This document shows, in pieces, positions 6,501 to 17,174 of a DNA stretch of 64,000 nt (position 1 is its first letter; each line of letters starts with the position of its first letter). Position numbers and translations under genes: made by a program. Origin of the DNA: Dictyostelium discoideum. Taxonomy: Eukaryota. The stretch spans positions 2,368,001 through 2,432,000 of the forward strand of contig CM000150.2 of assembly GCA_000004695.1 (NCBI GenBank), written 5' to 3'. The notes beneath the pieces are model-generated. The model made no database searches. It was not told the DNA's origin and saw only the letters and a program-made list of their open reading frames with translations.

Positions 6501-9500
6501 TTCATTTAAAGTTTGATTATAATGATCTTTTAAGAGTGTAGGAATTTCCCAACGATCTTTACCCGATTGATTGTAAGCTTCAATGGTTGGTTTTAAAATC
6601 AAAGGAAACAATGGACTTTTAGCTACAGTTTCCAATGCATCCAATTCTCTATGAAAAGTTACACAACTTGATACCCTTAAGAATGATAATGGTGTATTGG
6701 TATTGATTACACCATGACAGTTGTTGTTATTATTTTTCACCAAAGAGAGACTATACAATTTTTCAATGAGTGCTCTAGTATGTTGAGAGATAATGAATTG
6801 ACAAACCACTCTTTGAGAACTACCCTTCATATAACCATGATTTACTGTACGTGCTAATGCAAAGATGGCTCTACCTTCTTCATTGAAACTTTTAAAGAGT
6901 ACTAAATCATTGATTTTAATTTCCTCATCTTTAGTTTTGTGTCTAAGATAAAAAGTAACATTTAAACATTCCTCTGATATCTCCTCCAATGAATGAATGG
7001 TCATTGATTGATTCATATTAATTCTATCTAAATTTGAAATGGTTCCATCATCTGCTAATTTAACACCATCAATATCATTGAAATTGGTTTCAAGTGTTTT
7101 TCTAAATTCTTCAACTAAAATTGGTTTAAATGAATTCTTATATTCCATATGATTTTCATAACAATCCAAAAGTTTTACTATATTATTTGATTGTAATACT
7201 GTAATTCTTTCTGGTGCTGATTTTAAAATCTCTTCAATAATATGTTTTGAATCCATTGAAATTACATCAATTTGATCTCTAATTAATGGTGAATCAAATT
7301 TAATTTTTGAATTTATTGGTGTTACTGTTGCTGTTGGTATTGGTGTTGTTGTTTTTGTTGTTGTTGTTTCTTTTGTTGTTAAACTATTGTTGTTGTTAAG
7401 GTTACCATAACTACCTGGTACATAAATAAATGGTGCAATTGTACTTGAATTAGAGGTATTAAGTGTATTATTTGATGAATTATTATTATTATTATTATTA
7501 TTATTATTATTATTATTATTATTATTATTATTATTATTATTATTTAAGGAACCATAACTACCTGGGACATATGTAAAAGGAGCAGGAGAATTTAATTTGG
7601 AAGTGGTGTTAGTGGTTGTTGAACTTGTTATTGGACTTGTTATATTGAGTTTGTCGTTTTTTTGATTGGCTGGTACATAAGTGAAGGATGTTGGTGAAAG
7701 TGAACTTTTGGTTGAAGTTGAGGTTGAGGTGGTTGTTGATTTTGTGGTTATACTTTCATTATCACCATTTTTGTTATTTTTTTTACTACTATTATTATTA
7801 TTTTTGCTATTATCATTATGGTTACTTGAACCACCACCTCCACCACCTGGGACATAAGTAAAGGAAGATACTGAAGGTACATTAAAATATTTCTTATCGA
7901 AATTTTCATTATTCCATTCGAGATCTTCAATGTTTTCATTATCTTCTTCATTATTATTATTATTGTCATCATGATATTCTTCACCATTATCATTATTATT
8001 ATTATAACTTTTATTATAATATCCATTATATTCGTTGTTATAATTATAGCTTTCACCATTATCATTATAATTGTACCCATCATTTTCGTAGTTATAACAA
8101 TCACCATTATAATTTTCATTGTTGTTATTATTATTATAATCACCATTGTAACCATCACCATTATAATTTTCATTATTATTATTATTATTATTATTATTAT
8201 TATTATTATTATTATTATTATTATTATTATTATTATTATTATTATTATTATTATTACTATTATTATTATCAATATAATCACTGTCATTATAATCACCATT
8301 ATAACCATCTTTATTGTAGACATCATCGTTATTATAATCATCATTATTATTATAATCACCACCATAATTATAATTATAACTACCATCATTATTATTGTTG
8401 TTATCATTATCGGTGTAATTATCATTATAATTTTCATTATTATAATCACCACCATCATTATTATTATAACTATCATCATTATTATTGTTATCATTATCGG
8501 TGTAATTATCATTATAATTTTCATTATTATAACTACCATCATTATAACCATCATCTTTGTAATTATCATTGTAATTATCATTATTATTATTATTATTATT
8601 ATTATTATTATTATTATTATTATTATTATTATTATTATTATTATTATTATTATTATAATTATTATTGTCATCATTATTATCGTTTTCATCGTTATTATCA
8701 TCATCATCATCATTATCAAGGTGATAAAAACTATTACTATTATAGCCACCACCTGGAACATAGGTGAAAGAGGTTACAGTTGGTACTTTGAATTTAGCTT
8801 TATCGATATCATCATTGTTGTTAATGCTCTTTTTGTTATTTTTATTATTATTATTATTGTTGTTGTTATTATTATTATTCTTATTATTATTACTATTATT
8901 ACTATTATTAATAATTTCTCTATTATTTTCTTTTTTATTAATAATGTTTTCTCTATTTAAACTATTTCTACTTAAAATTGAATAACTTGAATAATCATTT
9001 TGATATTTTTTAATCAATAAATAAATTTCATTAAAACTTGAACGAGAAATGAGTGAAACATCTTCATGAGTTTTTGGTAAAGTTAAAGTTGGAATTGAAA
9101 TATTTGTTTTACCACTTCTACGATAGTTAAACTCTTTAGTATATTCAGTGAATTTATGGTTAGAGAAATCTTGGAATAATAATTTTCTAGATCTTTGATG
9201 TTGAATTAGTTGTTCCAAGATTGAATAATATTGATCGGTATCATTTTCACTCTCTAAAATTTCTTTAAGAAGTAATCTTTGATAACAATGACTAGTTTCA
9301 ATTAAAATCTTAAAAGATAATATTTTTTGGTAAATATCCTCACATAAATCATCATTGGTTTTAATCATTGATTTAATTGAAACTAAATATTTGTTTGCTA
9401 ATTTAATCTTCTTTTCTAATCTATCACGACTTGATTCAATGGTTTGTCTTACTAAATGTAAATTTCTATAATGTTGTGGATAACTCTTTAACATTTCATC

Positions 9501-17174: not shown

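Follow-up and report, generated by a model that had tools for sequence, protein, structure and literature searches.

A tandem array of a predicted new domain in a giant helicase–nucleotidyltransferase protein of Dictyostelium discoideum

The RNA helicases Sen1 and UPF1 contain large accessory regions amino-terminal to their helicase cores; that of Sen1 is long, mainly helical and serves protein interactions. Among repeat proteins, the talin rod and spectrin are composed of helical bundles arranged as beads on a string. Cooperation between a helicase and a non-canonical nucleotidyltransferase on the same RNA has been described for two systems: human MOV10 displaces L1-ORF1p, after which TUT4/7 uridylate LINE-1 mRNA (PMC6191937), and the RNA-directed RNA polymerase complex (RDRC) of fission yeast includes a helicase, Hrr1, together with Cid12, a protein of the poly(A) polymerase family (PMC3380556). 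Here, we analyse a stretch of 64,000 nucleotides of the Dictyostelium discoideum genome (GenBank assembly GCA_000004695.1, contig CM000150.2, positions 2,368,001 to 2,432,000 of the forward strand, hereafter the window), in which one very long gene, gene 2, encodes nine diverged copies of a module of about 190 residues, followed by a putative helicase and a putative nucleotidyltransferase.

These systems, together with the talin rod and spectrin and the dictyostelid fusions described below, are the closest known ones. Like Sen1 and UPF1, the gene 2 protein has a helicase core with all signature motifs and a large accessory amino-terminal region. However, at this locus that region consists of 9–12 discrete 190-residue domains with disordered linkers and no Pfam match, and the helicase is fused to a nucleotidyltransferase, which is not the case in Sen1 and UPF1. 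With MOV10–TUT4/TUT7 and Hrr1-Cid12-Rdp1 it shares the combination of helicase and non-canonical nucleotidyltransferase, but those are separate proteins, none of them containing the module, while here both are part of a single polypeptide. Unlike the Hrr1-Cid12-Rdp1 complex, the protein has no RNA-dependent RNA polymerase domain.

The repeated module and its predicted fold

From the amino- to the carboxy-terminus, the gene 2 protein contains nine modules (u1 to u9), a low-complexity region, a Sen1/UPF1-like helicase and a Cid1/GLD-2-like nucleotidyltransferase (Table 1), with the array occupying the amino-terminal 60% of its 4,540 residues. An exact look-up of the 4,540-, 708- and 421-residue open reading frames (ORFs) of the locus and of the spliced 1,134-residue model of its second gene gave no record. 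The original prediction had placed at least nine copies between positions 7700 and 17174, corresponding to the amino-terminal 70% of the ORF. Modules are indeed present at 9009–17162, but the part from 7700 to 9008 contains none, and the array also extends upstream of 17174.

The units were set in register by anchoring on the ILKxIF motif and then aligning segments of 215 residues. In pairwise BLASTP comparisons they are 20–34% identical, with E-values down to 3e-25. When each unit is left out in turn, it scores 71–147 bits against the profile of the other eight, compared to at most 10.3 bits for the best of 200 shuffles per unit. Units from D. purpureum, which are absent from the profile, match it with E-values of 1e-12 to 1e-43. 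The self-alignment that had been proposed as a check therefore shows nine diverged copies that align significantly with each other. The motifs originally quoted (ILKxIF, YP, ETIKRNA, EFSxxYQRKxLKE, IPxFK and EDIS..I..LF.EI) are all present in the consensus, and the conserved Arg/Lys/Glu pattern is real. The linkers are of low complexity, as expected, being 50–258 residues long and polyQ/P, polyN, polyS/T or acidic in composition. At the DNA level the units are invisible as repeats, save for one 84-nt stretch of 75% identity shared by the tails of u4 and an upstream unit, so the module duplications are old.

The AlphaFold2 model of unit 5, calculated from an alignment of the nine units only, has a mean predicted local distance difference test score (pLDDT) of 89.9 and a predicted template modelling score (pTM) of 0.87. 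It starts with a short helix (residues 3–8), followed by helices formed by residues 14–27, 29–42 and 53–72 and a 35-residue helix (residues 77–111), which carries the EFSxxYQRKxLKE core. A helix of residues 118–133, two short helices and the carboxy-terminal helix (residues 183–197, EDIS..I..LF.EI) complete the helical part. Strands 161–165 and 168–172 form a beta-hairpin with the sequence F.F...G..I.IP.FK. An independent model of unit 9 has the same order of elements, with pLDDT values of 85–95 over most of the unit, and each modelled unit is a closed monomeric bundle. By these models, the repeats are copies of a real domain of about 190 residues that is predicted to fold independently. The modelling of single units thus agrees with the earlier suggestion of a folded unit as opposed to low-complexity sequence.

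The window is AT-rich, with a GC content of about 20–30% (about 25% in the region with the ORF) and abundant trinucleotide repeats, properties that would suit an array that is a compositional or low-complexity artefact, or an ORF that is not a real gene. Against this stand the 13.6-kb open frame in 25%-GC DNA, the distance between shuffled (at most 10 bits) and real units, the confident fold predictions and the homologous arrays in two other species. The shuffle test, homologous arrays and fold predictions refute the artefact, to which we attach a negligible probability.

The module could not be matched to a named domain, in agreement with what had been noted from the sequence. With Pfam-A, the whole 4,540-residue protein gave no match amino-terminal of residue 3556, the nine units searched singly at E ≤ 10 gave only scattered single-unit matches with E ≥ 0.05, and none was obtained for the ORFs upstream or for the proteins of D. 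purpureum and D. citrinum. NCBIfam contains no match for the module, and the best E-value of the unit profile against PDB sequences is 0.24. Foldseek searches against 350,542 PDB chains and against the viral models of BFVD returned nothing at E ≤ 0.001. No Pfam or fold match to KH, PUF, PPR or RRM domains was found in the module, and the Sen1 amino-terminal and UPF1 CH (zinc-knuckle) families are not among the Pfam matches of the 4,540-residue protein at E ≤ 1. Literature searches revealed nothing relevant on the module or on a Dictyostelium helicase–nucleotidyltransferase fusion. As judged by these searches, the domain family is undescribed in searchable libraries and literature. Alternatively, the module might belong to a known helical-bundle family but have diverged so far that sequence and fold searches alike missed it; we consider this quite improbable. 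Comparing the profile with itself by hhalign revealed no off-diagonal match, and an origin of the module by internal duplication was therefore rejected.

The low-complexity region that follows the last module is rich in Asn, Asp, Tyr and Gly and contains the motif F(T/I)YVPG five times (at residues 2803, 3105, 3164, 3200 and 3249). The fuller form of this motif, (S/P)F(T/I)YVPG(G/S), recurs at spacings of 36–300 residues within polyN/Tyr-rich sequence and is not conserved in D. purpureum. Docking of the motif onto the module by beta-augmentation was not supported by an AlphaFold2 model of unit 9 with its native linker and the first motif, in which the motif has pLDDT values below 45, although this is a weak test. 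In D. purpureum (GL871136.1, around 23700–24200, in the gene 2 frame), about twelve tandem 11-residue Tyr-rich repeats, GxY(V/I)E(G/S/C)(F/Y)Y(N/D)xx, take the place of this Asn/Asp/Tyr-rich region; they may be a sticker-type low-complexity element.

The catalytic part and the upstream gene

The helicase core is recognised by Pfam as AAA_11 (E 1.6e-45) and AAA_12 (E 4.1e-56), and the translation contains the motifs GPPGTGKT, DEATQ and RRINVSITRAK of a UPF1-like helicase of superfamily 1 (SF1), subgroup SF1B. The nearest solved structures are those of Sen1 (5e-64) and UPF1 (2e-59), with ZNFX1 and Aquarius far more distant. Outside the dictyostelids, the best matches are plant MAGATAMA3 Sen1-like helicases, which lack the nucleotidyltransferase.

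The nucleotidyltransferase matches PF22600 (1.3e-18), TUT4 (6e-32) and GLD2 (2e-28) and is closest to TUT4, GLD2, TUT7, URT1 and Cid1. Its catalytic GS and DxD residues align with those of TUT4/TUT7 (FGSFLSGLSLGESDIDV versus FGSSKNGFGFRDSDLDI in TUT4), while the third catalytic Asp, in RFDM, aligns with EGDI of TUT4, and the alignment runs through the PAP-associated region up to the DPF motif. The palm, the hG[GS] motif, the three Asp residues and the PAP-associated region of Cid1/GLD-2/TUT4-type terminal nucleotidyltransferases are thus all present. In TUT4/7 and Cid1, the His of the DPF..xHN motif is the UTP-selecting residue. Here this position is a Lys (DPFIEGKN, encoded within 3627–3700, versus DPFDLNHN in TUT4 and TUT7), so the added nucleotide is not predictable, and the enzyme may not be a uridylyltransferase, despite TUT4 being its best match. 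From their conserved motifs, both the SF1 RNA helicase and the terminal nucleotidyltransferase are apparently active.

A six-frame scan with the unit profile revealed three further units (A1 to A3) upstream of position 17174 on the minus strand, bringing the number at the locus to twelve. They belong to a predicted module-only gene, gene 1, in which a canonical intron (GTAAGA...TTTTAG) joins the 708- and 421-residue ORFs in frame. The residues encoded across the intron (..SDQVIMDILNFIF) complete the start of A3. The spacer between the two genes is probably intergenic. Two genes are favoured because in both D. discoideum and D. purpureum an ATG precedes the unit by two to four codons (MTSQQHDIVKSIF versus MSQNEILKYIF; the gene 2 proteins start with MTSQQ and MSQNE, respectively), because long A-runs precede the gene 2 ATG, as they do the gene 1 ATG at 21186, and because the annotated genes of D. 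purpureum are separated at the corresponding place. A single protein of 5,671 residues, produced by removal of a 507-nt intron from GTGAGG at 17673 to AG at 17167, would also have an in-frame junction but is disfavoured on these grounds.

Table 1. Positions of the features discussed, in window coordinates.
Feature	Positions	Strand	Residues or length	Remarks
Gene 1	17670..21186	-	1,134 aa	module-only; three modules, C-terminal coiled-coil-like stretch
Gene 1, first ORF	19060..21186	-	708 aa	two units
Gene 1, second ORF	17670..18935	-	421 aa	one unit
Gene 1, exon 1	19064-21186	-		
Gene 1, predicted intron	18952..19063	-	112 nt	
Gene 1, exon 2	17670-18951	-		
A1	20530..21186	-		degenerate; ~20 aa missing near N-terminus, polyQ insertion; counterpart of D. 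purpureum unit 1
A2	19462..20202	-		57% identical to D. purpureum unit 2; low-complexity insertion before last helix
A3	18126..18950	-		type B; polyN loop inserted; most similar to u4 (42%) and to D. purpureum unit 6
Spacer	17175..17669	-	495 nt	AT-rich; between gene 1 and gene 2
Gene 2	3552..17174	-	4,540 aa	one uninterrupted ORF
u1	16575..17162	-	aa 5-200	acidic, pI 4.8
u2	15312..15872	-	aa 435-621	
u3	14616..15161	-	aa 672-853	
u4	13779..14393	-	aa 928-1132	divergent 'type B' (SNF..KYSGSLLDIRE..FKFGGE)
u5	12411..13004	-	aa 1391-1588	modelled with AlphaFold2
u6	11589..12161	-	aa 1672-1862	
u7	10566..11171	-	aa 2002-2203	
u8	9762..10331	-	aa 2282-2471	
u9	9009..9566	-	aa 2537-2722	second unit modelled with AlphaFold2
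Low-complexity N/D/Y/G-rich region	7413..8768	-	aa 2803-3254	between last module and helicase; not module
SF1 helicase core	5373..6509	-	aa 3556-3934	AAA_11/AAA_12
Non-canonical ribonucleotidyltransferase	3627..4529	-	aa ~4216-4516	palm and PAP-associated region
ORF identical to multi-copy protein	22879-24213	+	444 aa	
tRNA-Asn	22364-22438	-		
ORF of HPP family	25899-26756	-	285 aa	

Distribution of the module and surroundings of the locus

When 1.84 billion representative proteins were searched exhaustively with the profile, two matched: XP_003289907 of D. purpureum, a hypothetical protein of 1,899 residues with seven units (E 4e-204), and a 378-residue hypothetical protein of D. citrinum. 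Searching proteins with a profile of the copies, as had been suggested, thus yields relatives only in these two species. Six-frame scans of their DNA revealed more. The D. purpureum locus contains 15 units (Dp1 to Dp15) over two adjacent gene models, followed by a helicase. In a D. citrinum paralogue, about six units precede a helicase and a nucleotidyltransferase that share 53% and 42% identity with those of the window protein. A word-indexed search with alignments of 9 and 29 units gave no match, which is uninformative, because it missed even the D. purpureum protein P0001, whose own units were in the query. With a single unit as query, no metagenomic relatives were found. The protein libraries returned neither a D. 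discoideum protein for gene 2 nor, at the loci examined, the D. purpureum 3,376-residue, D. citrinum 2,294-residue and P. violaceum 1,572-residue proteins. Very long or low-complexity-rich proteins therefore seem under-represented in them, and absence from these libraries is weak evidence.

When the arrays of D. discoideum and D. purpureum are compared, the pairs A1 and Dp1, A2 and Dp2 (57% identity), A3 and Dp6, u1 and Dp8, u2 and Dp9, u6 and Dp13, u8 and Dp14, and u9 and Dp15 are collinear. Units u4 and u5 are nearest to Dp6 and Dp2 by identity, with their collinear partners Dp11 and Dp12 ranking a few points lower. For most units, collinear partners are 29–57% identical, modestly above the 24–35% between paralogous units, but for A3, u4 and u9 the value is not above the best within-species match. 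The positions of the type B units are conserved (A3 and u4 in D. discoideum; Dp4, Dp6 and Dp11 in D. purpureum). The array therefore predates the split between the two species and its units have been retained, while their sequence evolves fast. A linker segment of about 65 nt, on the minus strand, is about 96% identical between 19064–19200 (after A2) and 11230–11366 (after u6). It encodes NQNEIIVNP(V/I)QSNR(I/K)EPKI and has poly-AAT ahead of it. The modules on either side share only about 30% identity as proteins, which suggests recent gene conversion or patch duplication of the linker segment.

Fusions of a helicase with a PAP-associated nucleotidyltransferase are also found in Acytostelium subglobosum (SAMD00019534_099440 and SAMD00019534_099420) and in P. 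violaceum (CYY_005907), with 35–39% identity over the catalytic part. However, these are tandem paralogues of only 1,250–1,380 residues without the module, which is also absent from the 10 kb of DNA upstream of them. An origin of the module in the amino-terminal regions of the P. violaceum or Acytostelium proteins was rejected, as hhalign probabilities were at most 0.6%. Because these fusions, their upstream DNA and their amino-terminal regions lack it, the module seems to have arisen within Dictyostelium sensu stricto and to have been added to an older helicase–nucleotidyltransferase fusion that occurs across dictyostelids; within the sequences covered, the domain is so far known only from Dictyostelium sensu stricto.

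Residues 1–290 of CYY_005907 contain two copies of another segment of about 130 residues (..YLKSLIWKDGTLPDFEY.. and ..YIKDLLWKEGSLPNFDY..), unrelated to the Dictyostelium module by hhalign, which may have arisen independently as an accessory repeat in the equivalent place. Paralogues with a nucleotidyltransferase, with or without a helicase, occur in tandem clusters. P. violaceum has a run of at least four (AJWJ01000248.1, 2965–20215) and A. subglobosum has two (positions 10001–20480 of the locus covered), and D. purpureum has a second helicase–nucleotidyltransferase gene (GL871136.1, 2–2788) 7 kb upstream of the module array. These clusters are a lineage-specific expansion for which no earlier description was found.

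The 444-residue ORF in the window is identical to a multi-copy protein of D. discoideum AX4 (DDB_G0269094 and others, on 14 contigs) and has no Pfam match. It starts about 440 bp from the tRNA-Asn gene, which is consistent with ORF1 of a tRNA-targeted TRE5-type retrotransposon; it is not followed by an intact ORF2. The window contains nine tRNA genes (Glu, two Gln, Asn, Lys, Thr, Leu and two Ser), and this tRNA-rich neighbourhood directly adjoins the putative RNA-surveillance gene. The 285-residue ORF strongly matches the HPP transmembrane family (PF04982, E 9e-52) and is an ordinary neighbour gene.

Possible roles of the array

Since helicase and nucleotidyltransferase are fused in one polypeptide, they are expected, in Rosetta-stone style, to act on the same substrate. 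By analogy with the systems described above, we favour, at about even chances, a role of the array as a multivalent docking platform by which particular ribonucleoproteins (RNPs) or partner proteins would be brought to the two enzymes. The array would be organised as beads on a string, single units binding distinct protein or RNP partners, one possible partner being the upstream module-only protein. The Sen1/UPF1-like, 5'-3' SF1 helicase would strip or unwind RNPs and the tailing enzyme would mark the 3' end thus freed, with docking concentrating both enzymes on particular RNAs, for example aberrant or retrotransposon transcripts. The giant protein is then probably a lineage-specific docking platform of an RNA-surveillance machine.

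Several points weigh against this. AlphaFold did not place the FTYVPG motif of the protein itself on unit 9. Constraint on the surface of the units appears weak, because orthologous units are only slightly more identical than paralogous ones. The restriction to Dictyostelium rests on libraries that miss long neighbouring proteins and on two loci of other dictyostelids. Finally, the mildly basic character of many units (18 of 31 have an isoelectric point, pI, of about 9) and about nine conserved basic columns would be just as compatible with direct binding of RNA.

The 31 units from three species have mostly hydrophobic conserved columns; the strongly conserved polar positions are few (P30, K60, E96, Q102, R103 and K170). 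If the module itself bound RNA, the array would be a track of RNA-binding domains holding long RNAs for the helicase and tailing enzyme, a logic comparable to that of vigilin with its 14–15 KH domains. The covalent connection to two RNA enzymes, the median pI of about 9, the conserved Arg/Lys/Glu pattern and the conserved basic or polar residues K6, K55, K60, R92, Q102, R103, K107 and K170 are consistent with such a track. However, the units range in pI from 4.8 to 9.6, and Dp8, which corresponds to the acidic u1 in D. purpureum, is likewise acidic (pI 4.9). The module also bears no likeness to known RNA-binding folds, and the conserved polar residues sit on the long bundle helix, where they may be structural. 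We regard direct RNA binding as possible but doubtful.

Self-association or autoregulation is an unlikely further explanation, in which units would bind one another or the module-only protein, giving either a condensate, together with the polyQ/polyN/Tyr-rich linkers, or an inactive enzyme. A module-only protein is encoded next to the enzyme gene in both D. discoideum and D. purpureum, the linkers are very long and of prion-like composition, and a region rich in Tyr, Asn, Asp and Gly is also present, but the predicted units are closed monomeric bundles, and polyQ and polyN tracts, common throughout D. discoideum proteins, are weak evidence.

A more far-reaching version of the docking platform is one that we hold with little confidence. 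The array may be the target-recognition part of a Dictyostelium-specific genome-defence enzyme, its 12–15 fast-evolving, individually specialised domains recognising retrotransposon or viral RNPs and delivering them to the helicase and tailing enzyme. If true, a single polypeptide would be the counterpart of MOV10-TUT4/7 or of an RDRC accessory module, with a recognition element of new fold.

In kind, the domain is an accessory repeat confined to one lineage and attached to an RNA enzyme of known class, and its narrow phylogenetic range limits its general importance. It nevertheless represents a new family, absent from Pfam, NCBIfam and the PDB and with a confidently predicted fold, that covers about 2,300 structured, unannotated residues at one D. 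discoideum locus. The protein also unites a Sen1/UPF1-like helicase and a Cid1/GLD-2-like tailing enzyme in a natural fusion; in other eukaryotes the coupling of such functions involves separate proteins (MOV10 with TUT4/7, Hrr1 with Cid12). Given the genetic tractability of D. discoideum, its active tRNA-targeted retrotransposons and its RNA interference machinery, the gene offers a practical entry point to the targeting of helicase-coupled RNA tailing.

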